Positions 1 through 4,533 of a stretch of DNA of 4,533 nucleotides are shown piece after piece; within the stretch, counting starts at the first letter, position 1, and every line of letters starts with the position of its first letter. Below the pieces are notes generated by a model. It searched no databases, was not told the origin of the DNA, and saw nothing but the letters and a program-made list of their open reading frames with translations. The DNA comes from a virus (Duplodnaviria; Heunggongvirae; Uroviricota; Caudoviricetes). The stretch lies in the IMG/VR virus record IMGVR_UViG_2778261182_000006, one strand, 5' to 3'. The position numbers were made by a program, and so were the translations under genes.

Positions 1-370
1 GCTGCATAACTTCGCTTTCCCGGCACTCACGGCAAATCATGTTCTGACGCCTGTCATAGCGGCGTATTTCTCCGTCTGGTAATGAATAAACCAGGTCCGG
101 GTCGCTCTTTTTTTTCACTGCTGCTTTCGACATCTTTTTGCGGGCCTTTATCCAGTCCTTACGTGCCTGTTCAGACGGAAATAACCCGTAGCCGGAGTTG
201 TATAAATCGCCACTGGCAACCAGCTCTCTGGCAAGAACGCTCATCAGATATCTTGTCGCACCTGTTTTAGCTTCCAGTTGCCGTAGCGTCTCTCGCCCAC
301 TCTGGCGTACTAGCTCAACAACCTGCCCTTTAATTTTTTCCCGCTCTTCTTGTGTAAATACTTTTGCCAC
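1..370 (-). CDS. Partial CDS of unknown function (N-terminal 123 codons; continues past the left edge), first gene downstream of the replication initiator
   Basis: Own translation of the minus strand: open frame from GTG (revcomp of 368-370) to the window edge, beginning VAKVFTQEEREKIKGQVVELVRQSGRETLRQLEAKTGATRYLMSVLARELVASGDLYNSGYGLFPSEQARKDWIKARKKMSKAAVKKKSDPDLVYSLPDGEIRRYDRRQNMICRECRESEVMQ. Absent from the ORF track because it has no stop inside the window. AGGAGG (revcomp of 375-380) lies 4 nt upstream of the GTG. Same strand and tight spacing with the upstream rep gene (stop at 411). No Walker A motif in the visible part, so not obviously DnaC/P-like. A CxxC (CRECRE) sits near the edge. 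Confidence 0.5.
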   Translation of the reverse strand, partial: MAKVFTQEEREKIKGQVVELVRQSGRETLRQLEAKTGATRYLMSVLARELVASGDLYNSGYGLFPSEQARKDWIKARKKMSKAAVKKKSDPDLVYSLPDGEIRRYDRRQNMICRECRESEVMQ

Positions 371-410
371 AAGTCCTCCTGAAAATTACCTCATGATCTG
401 AAATAAACTC

Positions 411-1358
411 TTACCCCCTGAAGCCCGGCGGAATTTCGGTATCCGGTTCAGAAATGTGATTCACGCAACGCTGTACAGGCGAACGCCCCAGACGAATAAC
501 CAGCTCATCCCATTTTTCGCGAAGCTTTGACGGGCTCATGACGTTTTTTACCCAGAATGGATCCCGCTGTACCCGACCAAACATTTCGCAAATTTGTCTG
601 TGAGTTCTGCCATCCAGCATCCGCATTGTGCGCACATCATTGGCCCATGCAGTCCAGTTTGGTTCTTTCGGTCGCATGATTTCGCCATCATCGCTGGCAG
701 CCTGCTCGTAAAGACTCACGATTCGTCCCCAGATCCACTGCGCACACGCTAAATCTTCCTGGCTACCCCACTGGCGTTTTTTCGCACTGAACACAACCGC
801 GTCAGGGTGTCGGGTTAAAAAATCCTGTTCAGCCGTCTGCGGGTCCGGTTGCGAAGCGTCCGGACAAGAAGATCTTTTATCTGACGGATCAGGTTTTAAT
901 ACTGACGGATCGGGGCCAACCATCGCCCCCCTATCCGGCTGTTTTTTATCAATGGTTGATCCATCAAAATTTGAGGGGCCAACCGTTGAGAGGTCAATAT
1001 TTGACGGGTCATTTTTTACCGGGTTAATTTTTCTTTTCGGTTTATATGCCTCACGCGCCGCCGCTGCTGCTGCTTCGAGTTTTTCCACATTAAGACGGTA
1101 GATATTGCTTTCATTACGCCCACCGACCTTACGTTCCTCCTTCGTCAGCCAGCCGTTCTTTTCCAGTTCCGCTATCGCAGCTTTAACCGTTGATTCACTC
1201 TTTGCCCCAATCTGACGACGAATGGTCTCCACTGCAGGCCATGACACACCTTCGTCATTGCTGTAATCTGCAAGGCGAGCCATTACTGCCACCCTGGATA
1301 AGATCATGCCGGTGAAGGCACACCCTTCCCAGACAAGACCATGAAGCTTGCTGCTCAT
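411..1358 (-). CDS. Phage replication initiation protein: N-terminal DNA-binding (wHTH-like) region, low-complexity Pro/Asp/Ser linker, DnaT-like C-terminal domain
   Basis: 315-aa ORF from the track; GGAG about 7 nt upstream of the ATG (revcomp of 1365-1368). The C-terminus ...HISEPDTEIPPGFRG matches, by my recollection, the C-terminus of E. coli primosomal protein DnaT (...VSEPDSQIPPGFRG). The N-terminal region (AVETIRRQIGAKSESTVKAAIAELEKNGWL) looks like a winged-helix DNA-binding segment. It lies downstream of the cro-like and cII-like genes, as O/ydaU-type replication genes do. The linker-encoding DNA contains iteron-like repeats, as in lambda O/ori. Confidence 0.8.
   Translation of the reverse strand: MSSKLHGLVWEGCAFTGMILSRVAVMARLADYSNDEGVSWPAVETIRRQIGAKSESTVKAAIAELEKNGWLTKEERKVGGRNESNIYRLNVEKLEAAAAAAREAYKPKRKINPVKNDPSNIDLSTVGPSNFDGSTIDKKQPDRGAMVGPDPSVLKPDPSDKRSSCPDASQPDPQTAEQDFLTRHPDAVVFSAKKRQWGSQEDLACAQWIWGRIVSLYEQAASDDGEIMRPKEPNWTAWANDVRTMRMLDGRTHRQICEMFGRVQRDPFWVKNVMSPSKLREKWDELVIRLGRSPVQRCVNHISEPDTEIPPGFRG
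878..1050. repeat. Iteron-like repeats and short palindromes followed by an AT-rich stretch inside the rep gene; putative phage replication origin
   Basis: Seen directly: CTGACGGATC at 881-890 and 902-911 (21 bp apart) and TTGACGGGTC at 1001-1010; GGGGCCAACC at 912-921 and 975-984; palindromes TTGATccATCAA (956-967) and GTCAAtatTTGAC (993-1005); AT-rich 1011-1050. The region encodes the repetitive linker (PSNIDLST / PSNFDGST). The ori assignment is by analogy to lambda, where ori lies within the O gene linker. Confidence 0.4.
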
Positions 1359-1381
1359 AAAAAACTCCGAACACCGTGCTT

Positions 1382-1807
1382 TTAGTGCATCACCACGGCA
1401 TTTCCCGCCGGACCACCACGATTCATCTGGTTGAAACCAGCGATCGCCACTGCGACAAAATCATCAGCGTCTCTCACCAGTCGTTCCCGCGTCGCCACCA
1501 GCTCCCGAAAATAGGCTGAACTGTGACTGCGCATTCGGGCCACCAGCAGAGGTGGCATTGCTTTTTCGATCGCTGGTAACAGTGCCTGAATTTTTTTAAC
1601 CGCATCAGGAGTGTCTTTCTCTACCCAGCGGAAAATTTTCTGAGTATTGCGAGCCAGGGCTTCCGGATAGCTGTCGTCATACAGTTCCGGGAATGTCATA
1701 CCCAGCTCAAAATAAGCCCGGGTTATTTCAGCTGCCGGAACTTTTTCACCGTCCGGATGCGCCCAGGCACTCATCGCCATGCGGATGTGTTCATGCTTGA
1801 TTTTCAT
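1382..1807 (-). CDS. ydaT: YdaT-like protein (CII-analogue regulator of Rac-type prophages; historically annotated as toxin YdaT)
   Basis: 141-aa ORF from the track beginning MKIKHEHIRMAMSAWAHPDGEKVP, which matches my recollection of E. coli YdaT in length (about 140 aa) and N-terminus. It lies immediately downstream of the cro-like gene, overlapping it by 17 nt (1791-1807). Confidence 0.75.
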   Translation of the reverse strand: MKIKHEHIRMAMSAWAHPDGEKVPAAEITRAYFELGMTFPELYDDSYPEALARNTQKIFRWVEKDTPDAVKKIQALLPAIEKAMPPLLVARMRSHSSAYFRELVATRERLVRDADDFVAVAIAGFNQMNRGGPAGNAVVMH

Positions 1808-2063
1808 GAATCAACTCCGGTGCATTTGATGTGTTAACCTTACATCCAACAGGTAAACCGTCGGTTGGATTAGGATAAATATCAGGGCGAATTTCATGCG
1901 GGGTAACTTCCCACTTCATTAGCTGGCATAACGGAATTACCTGCTTTGGGGGAACGCCAAAGCTAAACCATTGCCAAACAGTCTGTTGAGCGACCCCCAT
2001 ATAACGACCTATTTCAGCTTGAGTGTATTTCTGCCTAATTTTTTCGCGAGTGCTATCTAGCAT
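1791..2063 (-). CDS. ydaS: Cro-like HTH regulator, YdaS family
   Basis: 90-aa ORF with an HTH (YTQAEIGRYMGVAQQTVWQW) and a YdaS-type C-terminal segment (PPKQVIPLCQLMKWEVTPHEIRPD). AGGAGG (revcomp of 2069-2074) lies 5 nt upstream of the ATG. It is divergent from the repressor-like gene at 2173. Confidence 0.8.
   Translation of the reverse strand: MLDSTREKIRQKYTQAEIGRYMGVAQQTVWQWFSFGVPPKQVIPLCQLMKWEVTPHEIRPDIYPNPTDGLPVGCKVNTSNAPELIHENQA
1797..1814. promoter_or_regulatory. Perfect inverted repeat TTGATT-N6-AATCAA centred on the ydaT start codon; candidate binding site for the CII-like YdaT or another HTH regulator
   Basis: Seen directly: TTGATT (1797-1802), spacer ttcatg, AATCAA (1809-1814). 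Its position at the cro-like/cII-like junction mirrors where lambda CII acts at pRE. Function is inferred. Confidence 0.35.
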
Positions 2064-2172
2064 TTTGCCCTCCTCTAAAAAACTATAAGCAAAGCCTACA
2101 ATAAAAAATTGTACACGATCAACAGTTTTTTATTGTGATGCTTTTAACAGTATTTACCTGTAAAATTGAATA
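2064..2172. promoter_or_regulatory. Divergent promoter/operator region (OR-like) between the cro-like and repressor-like genes
   Basis: 109-bp AT-rich intergenic region between divergent start codons. Contains the inverted repeat TACAAT-aaaaa-ATTGTA (2097-2113) and AACAGTTTTTTATTGT (2121-2136), a 15/16 match to a half-site of the palindrome at 3136-3174. A -10-like TAAAAT (2161-2166) ends 7 nt before the ATG at 2173, suggesting a leaderless repressor mRNA. Minus-strand -10 candidates are TATAGT (revcomp of 2082-2087) and TACAAT (revcomp of 2108-2113); their -35 elements are poor. Confidence 0.6.
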
Positions 2173-2574
2173 ATGATGAACGCCCTAGAAGTATCTATGT
2201 ACAGAATCAGCAAGCTTCTTCAGGAAACTGGATGGAGCCAGGCTGAGCTTGCCCGTAGAATTGGTGTGACACAACAAACTGTTCAACAATGGGCCAGCGG
2301 TAAGGCCACCCCTAAAGCCTCAAGTTTGGATAAACTGGTTGAGGTTACAGGGCATCCATTGCATTGGTTTTTATTGCCTCCTGAAGAAGGGGAGCAAATT
2401 TTCACCCCTGACACGATGAAAATTGGTCCTCGCCAACGCGAACTGCTCCAGGCTTTTAGTGCGTTTCCTGAGGAAGACCAAGAAAAAATGCTTCAAGAAA
2501 TCAAAGACAAGAAAAAATCAATGGAAGAAACCATTGCCCGGTGGTTGGCGGCGCAAAAAAGCCGCCGGGCGTAA
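2173..2574 (+). CDS. paaR2: XRE-family HTH transcriptional regulator, CI/DicA-like; regulator of the three-component TA operon and likely prophage immunity repressor
   Basis: 133-aa ORF with an HTH (SQAELARRIGVTQQTVQQWASG) and a C-terminal region typical of the dimerisation part of DicA-type repressors. No Shine-Dalgarno upstream. First gene of an operon with the antitoxin and ParE genes. Confidence 0.8.
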   Translation: MMNALEVSMYRISKLLQETGWSQAELARRIGVTQQTVQQWASGKATPKASSLDKLVEVTGHPLHWFLLPPEEGEQIFTPDTMKIGPRQRELLQAFSAFPEEDQEKMLQEIKDKKKSMEETIARWLAAQKSRRA

Positions 2575-2604
2575 CCACTACTGTACAAAAAGAGGAGTTA
2601 TGCC

Positions 2605-2796
2605 ATGAGTACAGCCCTTTCTCCGATAGTTTCAGAATTCGAAACTACCGAACAAGAAAACAGTTACAACGAATGGCTGCGCGCTAAAGTGGCGTCAAGC
2701 CTTGCAGACCCTCGCCCCGCAATTCCACATGACGAGGTAATGGCTGAAATGGAAAATCTTATTGCTCAAATTGCTGTAACTAACAGGAGCGAGTAA
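2605..2796 (+). CDS. paaA2: Small antitoxin of a ParE-family toxin (PaaA2-like)
   Basis: 63-aa acidic ORF (MSTALSPIVSEFETTEQENSYNEWLRAKVASSLADPRPAIPHDEVMAEMENLIAQ...) with GAGGAG about 7 nt upstream of the ATG. Its stop overlaps the toxin start (TAATG at 2794-2798). Size and position match the PaaA2 antitoxin as I recall it. Confidence 0.8.
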   Translation: MSTALSPIVSEFETTEQENSYNEWLRAKVASSLADPRPAIPHDEVMAEMENLIAQIAVTNRSE

Positions 2797-3083
2797 TGTT
2801 ACCCATTTTATGGCTACCATCTGCTCGCGATGATTTGCGTCAGATCGTAGCCTATATTGCTAAGGAAAATATTCCTGCAGCACGCAGACTAAAAATACGT
2901 ATTGAAACGTCTGTTTTAGCCCTCTCTGAGCACCCATATCTATATCCGCCAAGTGATCGAGTATCCGGTTTGCGGGAAATTGTGGTTCACCCTAATTATA
3001 TCGTTTTGTACCGAGTAGCAACTTCAAGCATTGAAATTGCAAATATTGTGCATGCCCGCCGACAATTTCCCTTCTCTATCTGA
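2796..3083 (+). CDS. parE2: Type II toxin, RelE/ParE superfamily (ParE-like)
   Basis: 95-aa ORF (MLPILWLPSARDDLRQIVAYIAKENIPAARRLKIRIE...HPYLYPPSDRVSGLREIVVHPNYIVLYRV...) of typical ParE size and pattern. AGGAG (2785-2789) precedes it, with translational coupling to the antitoxin; a terminator follows. Confidence 0.85.
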   Translation: MLPILWLPSARDDLRQIVAYIAKENIPAARRLKIRIETSVLALSEHPYLYPPSDRVSGLREIVVHPNYIVLYRVATSSIEIANIVHARRQFPFSI

Positions 3084-3099
3084 GCCGAGCAATTCTCAT

Positions 3100-3125
3100 A
3101 CTCCCTCATTCGAGGGAGTTTTTTT
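3100..3125 (+). terminator. Rho-independent terminator ending the regulator-antitoxin-toxin operon
   Basis: Seen directly: stem ACTCCCTC (3100-3107), loop ATTC (3108-3111), stem GAGGGAGT (3112-3119), overlapping a run of 7 T (3119-3125), 17 nt after the parE stop. Confidence 0.75.
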
Positions 3126-3135
3126 GCTCAAAGCC

Positions 3136-3179
3136 ACAATTAAAAACTGTTGACACAAAACAGTTTTTAATTGTAGATT
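3136..3179 (+). promoter_or_regulatory. pL/dicBp-like early promoter embedded in a 39-bp perfect palindromic operator
   Basis: Seen directly: ACAATTAAAAACTGTT (3136-3151) and its exact reverse complement AACAGTTTTTAATTGT (3159-3174), separated by GACACAA. Consensus -35 TTGACA at 3150-3155; -10 candidate TAGATT at 3174-3179 (18-bp spacer). The half-site recurs at 2121-2136 in the OR-like region. Confidence 0.55.
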
Positions 3180-3362
3180 GTTTTCACCGCCCCACCCCGT
3201 CCCACAGAACGCAGGGCAATACTTCGAGTTACCAGGCAGTGGTCAGGGGTTAAGTAGCCAGCCCGAGGCGTAAGAACATGACGGCAGGGTTCAACTTTAA
3301 TAACTATGCAGCAGGTTTTTGTTCCGCTACCCCGGCGTTAAGGGGAAACAGAGGATTTCTCA

Positions 3363-3719
3363 GTGGGCGAAGTCAAACATCAGAATGGAAGGCATCCCGG
3401 GATCGGCAAAGAAGCAGCAATGGCGCTTTATATTGACATCAGCGCCATTGCCGGACAGGTAAGAGTTATTAGAGCGGTAACTAAGCAGTATGCGCCTTTA
3501 CTTCAGAAAGTCTCTGGTGAGTGCACCGAAGATATTGTCAACGATTTCGTCATCGAACTGCGAGGACTCATCTTCAGTTACAAGGTGACCACAATTTTTG
3601 CAGATGGCTCCCGCGAAACTGTCAGAGCCCTGCGGCTTAAAGGATGTGTCAAAGACTTCGCCACCACATTCTGGGCAAGAAAACTTGATTGTATTCATAA
3701 CCAATTTCCTCTCGAGTAA
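3363..3719 (+). CDS. Alternative hypothetical protein (118 aa, GTG start), mutually exclusive with the antisense zinc-ribbon ORF
   Basis: Plus-strand ORF in the same direction as the early operon; GAGGA (3351-3355) lies 7 nt upstream of the GTG. It uses only AGA/AGG arginine codons in its unique 5' part and has no recognisable motif. Its openness over 3498-3698 may be an antisense in-register artefact of GNC-rich coding on the other strand. Confidence 0.3.
   Translation: MGEVKHQNGRHPGIGKEAAMALYIDISAIAGQVRVIRAVTKQYAPLLQKVSGECTEDIVNDFVIELRGLIFSYKVTTIFADGSRETVRALRLKGCVKDFATTFWARKLDCIHNQFPLE
3498..3698 (-). CDS. Small 4-Cys zinc-ribbon protein (about 66 aa), unknown function
   Basis: Minus-strand ORF (track 3498-3704, TTG start; more likely ATG at 3696-3698) with C-P-E-C ... 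C-K-N-C spaced about 21 residues apart, a classic zinc-ribbon signature, plus an acidic C-terminus. GAGAGG (revcomp of 3708-3713) lies about 9 nt upstream of the ATG. It conflicts with the plus-strand ORF 3363-3719; at most one is real. Confidence 0.45.
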   Translation of the reverse strand: MNTIKFSCPECGGEVFDTSFKPQGSDSFAGAICKNCGHLVTEDESSQFDDEIVDNIFGALTRDFLK

Positions 3720-3790
3720 CAGACCCCTCAGAGGATACCACCTCGCCTGACGTGGTTAAAAGCAGGCAACGCTAACCACAAGGAGCCGAC

Positions 3791-4006
3791 ATGCAGAAAC
3801 GAGAACCCGTCATCATCGCGCCAGACTATACCGATGATGAAATTTACGAATGGATGTGCGGGAAGATACGCGCCATTAATGACCTGAAGCAGGCTGCTGA
3901 CTATAAAGAGCGCCTCTCTAAAGAACTGGCGTCAGCGGAGCAGGATATTACCACTCTGGCAAAAAGCGCGGCTTTAAACGTTTCGCGAGTGACTGAAAAC
4001 CACTGA
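3791..4006 (+). CDS. Hypothetical small protein (71 aa) of the early rightward operon
   Basis: Strong SD AAGGAG (3780-3785) 5 nt before the ATG. Plausible, non-repetitive protein (MQKREPVIIAPDYTDDEIYEWMCGKIRAINDLKQAADYKERLSKELASAEQDITTLAK...). Occupies the position of the small ydfA/B/C-type genes upstream of DicF in Qin-type prophages. Confidence 0.6.
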   Translation: MQKREPVIIAPDYTDDEIYEWMCGKIRAINDLKQAADYKERLSKELASAEQDITTLAKSAALNVSRVTENH

Positions 4007-4009
4007 CTG

Positions 4010-4396
4010 ATGAGGTTGATGATGGAATTTAAAGATTTACCAATGCCATTCCAGGAAATGGCAGCGAATATAGTTCGTTCCCAACTGGCGACTCTTGACC
4101 TGAGTACCGTAGAAAAAGAAACCATCGATAATATATCCGGTAACGTGCGTCGCGCCTTTATCGGGTTGTACGAAGAGAAGCAACTCTCTGATAACCAGGA
4201 TTTACATGAAAAATACTTCCTGGAATTAATGGACATCATTGATAAGGGATTTGGCTTGTTAATGAAACAGAAAGGGATTCGAATGAACCCCCTTGAAAAT
4301 TACTTCGTAACAAGAAGCATTAATTCCTGTGATTTAAAGCATCCCGCCACAGACGGGAGTGTTACAGTTAGCCATAAGATTTCGATTAATCATTAA
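4010..4396 (+). CDS. Hypothetical protein (128 aa by track; true start may be ATG 4019 or 4022)
   Basis: ORF begins 3 nt after the upstream stop. GAGG (4012-4015) would serve an ATG at 4022 (6-nt spacing). No recognisable motif. Followed by the DicF-like element. Confidence 0.6.
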   Translation: MRLMMEFKDLPMPFQEMAANIVRSQLATLDLSTVEKETIDNISGNVRRAFIGLYEEKQLSDNQDLHEKYFLELMDIIDKGFGLLMKQKGIRMNPLENYFVTRSINSCDLKHPATDGSVTVSHKISINH

Positions 4397-4464
4397 AATC
4401 AATAACTATTTCAATAAGTGATGCCATCTCGTTGCATTTTGTTGAATTCATCTTACGTAATACT

Positions 4465-4526
4465 TCATGTTGATTAGCACCTTTGGCGGCATCAGTTTTC
4501 ATTGCTGGCTGATGTCCGCCCTTTTT
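4465..4526 (+). ncRNA. dicF: DicF-like small RNA with its intrinsic terminator (5' end is processing-defined and approximate)
   Basis: The segment ...CCTTTGGCGGCATCAGTTTTCATTGCTGGCTGATGTCCGCCCTTTTTAAAGTGA resembles my recollection of E. coli DicF (...GTTTGGCGGTATCAGTTTTACTCCGTGACTGCTCTGCCGCCCTTTTT). Shared blocks are TTTGGCGG-ATCAGTTTT and CCGCCCTTTTT. It lies at the end of an early operon under an operator-controlled promoter, as DicF does in the dicB operon. Confidence 0.5.
4485..4526 (+). terminator. Rho-independent terminator (3' hairpin of the DicF-like RNA)
   Basis: Seen directly: stem GGCGGCATCAG (4485-4495) pairs with CTGATGtCCGCC (4509-4520, one bulged T), 13-nt loop, then a run of 5 T (4522-4526). 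Confidence 0.6.
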
Positions 4527-4533
4527 AAAGTGA

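Follow-up and report, generated by a model that had tools for sequence, protein, structure and literature searches.

What is a ParE-type toxin–antitoxin (TA) pair doing immediately behind a phage regulator gene, and does it belong to the immunity switch of the prophage or only lie beside it? The locus that raises this question sits in a 4,533-nt stretch of DNA from a tailed phage (Caudoviricetes; IMG/VR record IMGVR_UViG_2778261182_000006), which was analysed as a whole and is called the window here. Our answer, to which we give a probability of about 0.85, is that the region is the immunity module of a lambdoid prophage of the Rac/Qin/CP-933 type and that a PaaA–ParE pair is part of its repressor operon. 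Features of this kind are already known, and so, in essence, is the locus itself, a common allele of the TA system that Escherichia coli O157:H7 carries as its second copy; an earlier reading made from the sequence alone was right to call the layout not novel: the wiring of CP-933P, a paralogue of this locus, was published in 2021 (Jurenas 2021, PMC8630535).

The sequence-only reading had described three same-strand open reading frames joined by a 30-nt gap with a Shine–Dalgarno site and a TAATG overlap, divergent from a cro-like gene and ending at a strong terminator, and each of these elements was found again (Table 1). The gap between regulator and antitoxin, 2575–2604, contains AGAGGAG at 2590–2596, 8 nt 5′ of the ATG. 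The antitoxin TAA (2794–2796) and the toxin ATG (2796–2798) have one base in common, and AGGAG at 2784–2788 lies 7 nt upstream of the toxin start. Together with its context (47 nt), the terminator has a folding energy of −21.5 kcal/mol (z = −6.4), which 0/200 shuffles equal. The order regulator–antitoxin–toxin on a single strand, with short gaps and one terminator, is that of a three-component paaR–paaA–parE operon. From this anatomy and from the paralogous paaR2–paaA2–parE2, the three genes would be co-transcribed and the TA pair would be under the control of the regulator.

Table 1. Features of the window, with positions counted from its first letter; promoters, operators and activator sites are predictions.
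Feature	Position	Strand	Remarks
ydaT, CII-like activator gene	1382–1807	−	Pfam YdaT_toxin, 4.2e-10
ydaS, Cro-like, divergent from regulator	1791–2063	−	Pfam YdaS_toxin, 8e-10
YdaT site TTGATT-N6-AATCAA, PRE-like, at ydaS/ydaT junction	1797–1814		single exact match, 0.03 expected
PR-like promoter for ydaS–ydaT	2093–2122	−	−35 TTGATC (2122–2117), 18-nt spacer, −10 TAGGCT (2098–2093)
OR site 1, ACAATAAAAAATTGT	2098–2112		motif ACART-N5-AYTGT; predicted operator
OR site 2, ACAGTTTTTTATTGT	2122–2136		same motif; kept in 4/4 loci with this regulator type
OR site 3, ACAGTATTTACCTGT, one mismatch	2147–2161		adjoins regulator −10; identical in loci L002, L003 and L006
PRM-like −10, TAAAAT	2161–2166	+	6 nt 5′ of regulator ATG
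Putative immunity repressor, DicA/PaaR-type	2173–2574	+	133 aa; ORF coordinates exact
PaaA-family antitoxin	2605–2796	+	63 aa; matches Pfam PaaA2 and PDB 3zbe
ParE-family toxin	2796–3083	+	95 aa; matches Pfam ParE_toxin and PDB 5cw7_B
Intrinsic terminator, operon end	3100–3126	+	8-bp stem at 3100–3119, 5 G–C pairs, then T7
OL, two predicted operators (3136–3150, 3160–3174)	3136–3174		39-bp copy of OR1–OR2 module
PL-like promoter, TTGACA-18-TAGATT	3150–3179	+	directed away from operon; overlaps OL sites
ECs_2282-family CxxC zinc-ribbon ORF	3498–3704	−	NCBIfam 1.1e-15; 100% identical to Sakai ECs_2282
DicF-like small RNA	4474–4521	+	Rfam RF00039, 38.5 bits, below gathering score of 48; E = 5.5e-6

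The pair had been taken for a ParE toxin with its antitoxin, and profiles, structures and global alignments all agree. The antitoxin reaches 78.7 bits (cut-off 27; 3.1e-22) with the Pfam family PaaA2 (PF21217), matches PaaA2 in the PDB at 5.2e-23 and has 66.7% global identity to PaaA2 of Sakai prophage Sp12 (ECs_2280). PaaA2 is its only Pfam match, with no HTH, RHH or AbrB domain at E ≤ 0.01; unlike ParD/RelB-type antitoxins, it is thus without a DNA-binding domain, consistent with the paralogue PaaA2, which also has none (PMC8630535). The toxin belongs with ParE_toxin (PF05016) in the RelE/ParE superfamily (59.7 bits, cut-off 23, 4.4e-16), the match spanning positions 1–89 of the 89 in the profile. 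It matches crystallised ParE2 at 2e-38 and has 68.5% global identity to ParE2 of Sp12 (ECs_2281). By homology with this paralogue, we infer that the 95-aa protein is toxic.

The regulator has a more composite ancestry. Residues 13–66 form an HTH_3 domain (4.5e-13), its only domain match in Pfam, and the 133-aa protein has no S24 self-cleavage domain. Residues 86–133 are a PaaR-type C-terminal domain, identical to PaaR2 (ECs_2279) at 30/48 positions (62.5%), against 37% overall. The N-terminal DNA-binding part is unrelated to that of PaaR2 (24% identity over 33 aligned residues), and neither this domain nor the operators described below are of the PaaR2 type, which goes with GTTTAGTAA repeats. 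DicA of E. coli K-12 aligns with the regulator over its full length, C-terminal domain included (BLASTP, 28% identity, E = 1e-12), and the C-terminal part of PaaR2 can likewise be aligned to DicA; with the DicA subfamily model (NCBIfam NF007257), however, the regulator scores 53.2 bits against a cut-off of 101. Among solved structures, the C-terminal domain has no sequence match and the N-terminal domain matches only HTH domains of the 434-repressor type. Judged by these alignments, the regulator is a protein of PaaR family architecture with another specificity and a DicA-like DNA-binding domain. The similarity of all three proteins to PaaR2, PaaA2 and ParE2 that had been anticipated therefore holds for antitoxin and toxin, and for the regulator only at its C-terminus.

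Where, then, would such a regulator act? The window has five sites of the 15-bp near-palindrome ACART-N5-AYTGT, against 0.52 expected, and 0/200 shuffles reach five. All five sites fall within two control regions: three at OR, between the divergent genes and spaced 24–25 bp apart, and two at OL, beyond the terminator. OR and OL are paralogous modules of 39–42 bp, linked by the repeats D1 (77% over 39 nt), I2 (21-nt arms, 90%) and I1 (inverted, 42 nt, 79%). The PL-like promoter within OL has the top score in the window (10/12 consensus positions) and is analogous to the published PL933P (PMC8630535). Its mirror image at OR, leading into ydaS, scores 8/12, under the threshold of the scan, and is a putative PR-like promoter by virtue of its homology with the PL module through I1. 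At the predicted PRM the −35 is poor, and no Shine–Dalgarno site precedes the regulator start at 2173. The TAAAAT-6 nt-ATG geometry found here is that of GATAAT-6 nt-ATG at paaR2 (L001), whose mRNA is leaderless by 5′ RACE (PMC8630535); the regulator mRNA is probably leaderless too, starting near 2173.

The two genes on the other side of OR complete the resemblance to lambda. YdaS is 100% identical to its counterpart in the Sp4-type copy of O157:H7 strain SS52 and 23% identical to YdaS of Sp12. YdaT has 83.7% identity to the characterised YdaT of CP-933P/Sp12, which has been footprinted on the same motif at the same position (PMC9986795), so that YdaT and the exact motif together provide a CII-type activator with its site beyond the cro-like gene, as in lambdoid phages. 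The other hallmarks of a lambdoid immunity region are likewise present, namely a repressor gene and a cro-like gene that diverge, operator repeats in the interval and further copies of these operators at a distal PL-type promoter. The window would accordingly hold a complete lambda-style switch, with a repressor, analogues of Cro and CII, OR and OL, and PR-, PRM-, PL- and PRE-like elements; given the operators at OR and OL and the YdaT site, the TA pair therefore appears to lie within a full lambda-style immunity region. YdaS and YdaT are to be read as Cro- and CII-like regulators and not as a toxin pair, the real TA pair being PaaA–ParE.

That the regulator serves as the immunity repressor of the prophage, at OR as well as at OL, is supported most strongly by its variation among eight E. 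coli loci of this layout, the window included. By their N-terminal parts, the regulators of these loci can be sorted into four types: A (the window, A31, SS52/Sakai Sp4 and OkiPb01678), B (PaaR2), C (166-aa proteins) and D (strain GF60). The C-terminal domain is common to all of them, at 62–100% identity, and a comparison of seven loci shows it conserved in each. ACART-N5-AYTGT is present at OR and OL in 4/4 type-A loci, whereas types B, C and D are without it and each has its own motif repeated at both sites. Because one of the type-A loci, L006, is a hybrid with the other TA type (A+2), the operator motif tracks the DNA-binding type of the repressor and not the type of the TA pair. We also considered the regulator as a split-off DNA-binding domain of the antitoxin, an idea that is not favoured because its operators recur at the distal promoter of PL type and vary together with the cro-like gene.

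The TA pairs of these loci vary in a pattern of their own. Antitoxin residues 1–45 are about 90% identical in all compared loci; residues 46–63 switch jointly with the N-terminal ~40 residues of the toxin, giving two specificity types, which occur with the regulator types in the combinations A+1, A+2, B+2, C+1 and D+2. At the nucleotide level, mosaic junctions lie at about 1819, right of the YdaT site, at about 2444–2509 in the domain linker of the regulator, and at 3191, after the PL-like promoter. The window is itself mosaic: as far as 3348 it is 94% A31-like, and 3191–3856 is 98% Sp12-like. In none of the complete E. coli genomes does a single place match 80% or more of positions 1–4533. 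GF60 (L007) shows a further arrangement at its positions 2316–3626, with tandem regulators, a PaaR2-like one of 123 aa and then the type-D protein of 132 aa, ahead of paaA–parE; its OL region carries GTTTAGT repeats of the PaaR2 type.

Which of the known systems does the window represent? Its layout had been equated with paaR2–paaA2–parE2 of CP-933P/Sp12, and gene order, spacing and the position between OR and OL do agree, as do the neighbours of that locus: ydaS, ydaT, an O-like gene, the zinc-ribbon gene ECs_2282 and a ydfC-like gene. The attribution to the PaaR2/PaaA2/ParE2 set itself, however, gives way to another. O157:H7 has two paralogues according to a review, and two places in O157:H7 genomes match the locus, Sp12/CP-933P and Sp4. 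The Sp4 copy, which adjoins yccA (Sakai ECs_1069/1068/1067; SS52 RS05575–05565), has the same operators at OR and OL as the window. With the Sp4-type copy of SS52, the window shares 97%, 92% and 86% amino-acid identity in regulator, antitoxin and toxin, respectively, and 91% nucleotide identity over positions 1401–3348. By contrast, Sp12 has operators of the GTTTAGTAA type, with GTTTAGT-type repeats in place of ACART-N5-AYTGT, and differs in TA specificity type in the C-terminal 18 residues of the antitoxin and the N-terminal ~40 residues of the toxin. Because operators and DNA-binding domains differ between the two, the window and CP-933P are predicted to be heteroimmune. The window departs from Sp4 in the early region downstream, which is ydfA–ydfB in Sp4 and a segment with the Sp12-like zinc-ribbon gene here. 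The window is thus presumably an allele of the second O157:H7 system, paaR1–paaA1–parE1, a name that we reach by elimination, as there are two O157:H7 paralogues and Sp12 holds the paaR2 set. Hallez reportedly named a paaR1 set in 2010; our search of literature text for paaR1 matched only papers on PAAR proteins of type VI secretion.

Two better-known switches help to place the locus further. In lambda, cI–rexA–rexB follows the same logic, with a repressor promoter by OR, co-transcribed accessory genes, a terminator and an outward OL/PL, and the window also resembles lambda in having three operators at OR and a CII-type activator site beyond cro. It differs in that the TA proteins have no sequence relation to RexAB, the repressor has no S24 domain and OL shows two sites as against three. 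That the TA pair occupies the cI–rexAB position of a lambdoid immunity region, as the sequence-only reading had it, agrees with what has been described for CP-933P/Sp12 (PMC8630535; PMC9986795), in which paaA2–parE2 takes the place of rexA–rexB and PaaR2 that of CI (PMC9986795). The DicA–DicC region of the K-12 prophage Qin shares with the window a divergent cro-like gene and, downstream, a ydfC-like gene and a DicF-like RNA; unlike the window, it has no TA pair between dicA and the downstream promoter.

Several observations concern the flanks of the operon. The ydfC-like ORF (3791–4006) is 60% identical to K-12 YdfC, and the DicF-like RNA downstream of it has the same relative position as dicF of Qin; when the whole window was scanned with Rfam, neither the operon nor the conserved PL leader gave a match. 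Just past the PL-like promoter, about 110 nt (3191–3300, + strand) are nearly invariant across all four repressor types (L001–L007), although the TA cassette beside them is only 68–80% identical. This block shows no unusual folding (z = 0.27) and no Rfam match, and its end is marked by a possible start codon of a short ORF (ATG, 3278). The zinc-ribbon ORF is antisense to what the PL-like promoter would transcribe, and transcription of the two would converge. An ORF at 4010–4396 (128 aa) has no family match. On the other side, the O-like replication gene (411–1358, − strand) contains short repeats in 880–1020, with a 15-nt period at 964–1004, which correspond to a repeated DPSN peptide region with a 5-aa indel relative to the Sakai and A31 proteins; they are candidate origin iterons inside an initiator gene, as in lambda.

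The pair could instead be an autonomous two-gene module whose own promoter is concealed in the regulator gene near its 3′ end and whose expression does not depend on the immunity switch. Elsewhere it does live alone: in species-representative genomes of other bacteria, among them Pseudomonas, Burkholderiales, Serratia and other Proteobacteria, PaaA lies directly upstream of ParE in 78 of 80 related loci (toxins 43–63% identical). In these 80 non-E. coli loci tblastn found no homologue of the regulator, YdaS or YdaT, and a profile of the regulator C-terminal domain found no counterpart near the PaaA–ParE pairs of other genera. The sole DicA-like HTH ORF that a profile search found among the neighbours in the 80 loci, at 2747–3166 of L041 from a Polaromonas metagenome-assembled genome (25% identity, pairwise E = 9e-5), may represent an independent three-component arrangement. 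Such stand-alone pairs fit the published suggestion that the immunity region of a prophage acquired a two-gene PaaA–ParE module by insertion (PMC8630535). Two further points favour autonomy, the constant company that the coding region of the regulator C-terminal domain keeps with the TA genes and a TA reporter that is on in both states of CP-933P. We nevertheless consider it unlikely in the window, where the gap of only 30 nt has no terminator, the antitoxin is without the DNA-binding domain that autoregulation would require, and a consensus scan of the + strand found no σ70-like site of at least 9/12 in 2173–3083; the paralogue, moreover, needs PaaR2 for full repression and addiction. Neither the scan nor inspection by eye found an internal TA promoter in 2430–2604, and a weak one is possible towards the 3′ end of the regulator gene, where it is conserved.

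The sequence-only reading had offered prophage stabilisation and abortive infection as roles for the pair. In the latter case the TA genes would form an exclusion system that replaces rexAB and is triggered by a superinfecting phage; they occupy exactly the rexAB position, 3′ of the repressor and 5′ of OL/PL, and TA systems can act in phage defence. Yet neither protein has sequence similarity to RexA or RexB, and neither fits any PADLOC defence model, that search having returned only generic HTH matches, so this role is possible but unsupported. The literature consulted on the paralogue supports post-segregational killing and gives no phage-defence phenotype; we regard abortive infection as improbable, and of the two roles it is stabilisation, through addiction, that is supported for the paralogue. 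Very improbable, in our view, is that the module is a decaying cryptic-prophage remnant with no current function. Its studied relatives do lie in cryptic prophages, and a related ParE occurs in only 1 of 50,697 phage records, that of phage Evi, which has the same layout in the B+2 combination. But the three ORFs are intact, the operators are conserved, and dN/dS is 0.03–0.13 in 10 of 11 pairwise comparisons of the three genes, even at dS above 1 (0.05–0.13 for the toxin), so all three genes are under purifying selection; the eleventh value, 0.68, comes from a pair of very low divergence. The locus is also widespread, with 793 of 5,426 complete E. coli genomes (~15%) matching positions 2064–3180, 507 of them over at least 80% of this query in a single place.

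If the pair belongs to the repressor operon, the observed gene identities, anatomy, operator repeats and co-variation of operator with repressor type can be joined into a working model, in which repressor binding, toxicity, addiction, co-transcription and the leaderless start are carried over from paaR2–paaA2–parE2. The 133-aa repressor, translated from a leaderless mRNA, would bind the 15-bp operators at OR and OL and keep off both ydaS (cro)–ydaT (cII) with the replication genes and the early genes of the ydfC/DicF/dicB type. The same transcript would cross the 30-nt gap into paaA and, by translational coupling at TAATG, parE before reaching the terminator, and YdaT at its PRE-like site could open a second route into the operon. 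PaaA, protease-labile, would neutralise ParE by direct binding; were the operon lost or replaced, ParE would be freed and the cell killed, an addiction that would stabilise the immunity region and with it the prophage.

We assign this scheme to the window by homology and anatomy, with another operator specificity; its experimental basis is the paralogue. There the part of CI is played by PaaR2, that of Cro by YdaS and that of CII by YdaT. PaaR2 is a repressor of PR and PL that, when its level is low, activates its own promoter; YdaS and PaaR2 are competitors for the same DNA; and YdaT activates a PRE-like promoter. Both the stabilisation of an unstable plasmid by the paaR2–paaA2–parE2 operon and the killing that follows loss of the operon depend on ClpAP/ClpXP. 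The paralogous locus is bistable, with TA genes transcribed in both states and ParE2 activity undetected at steady state. TA expression had been proposed to be coupled to the lysogenic state, which is thus partly true: since the TA genes are transcribed in both CP-933P states, the coupling to lysogeny is loose, and activation of the toxin has been unseen.

The main value of these results lies in a correct reading of the locus, in which the PaaA–ParE pair belongs to the repressor operon. To the published picture they add the operators predicted for a repressor of this type and a modular reassortment of repressor, C-terminal domain and TA specificity. Repressor specificity and TA specificity reassort independently, with junctions in the repressor domain linker and inside the antitoxin gene, which points to antitoxin residues 46–63 and the N-terminal ~40 residues of the toxin as determinants of cognate recognition. 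A rather unlikely extension is that the regulator C-terminal domain, paaA and parE form one cassette that moves among heteroimmune prophages, with the C-terminal domain functionally tied to the TA pair; the block occurs here with at least four types of DNA-binding domain and operator and with two TA specificity types. If so, that domain could be where the PaaA–ParE complex, which has no DNA binding of its own, docks to exert feedback on transcription; or else the cassette could police swaps of the immunity region by killing recombinants that lose it. The mosaic also bears on a published proposal in which the TA pair protects the immunity region from recombination.
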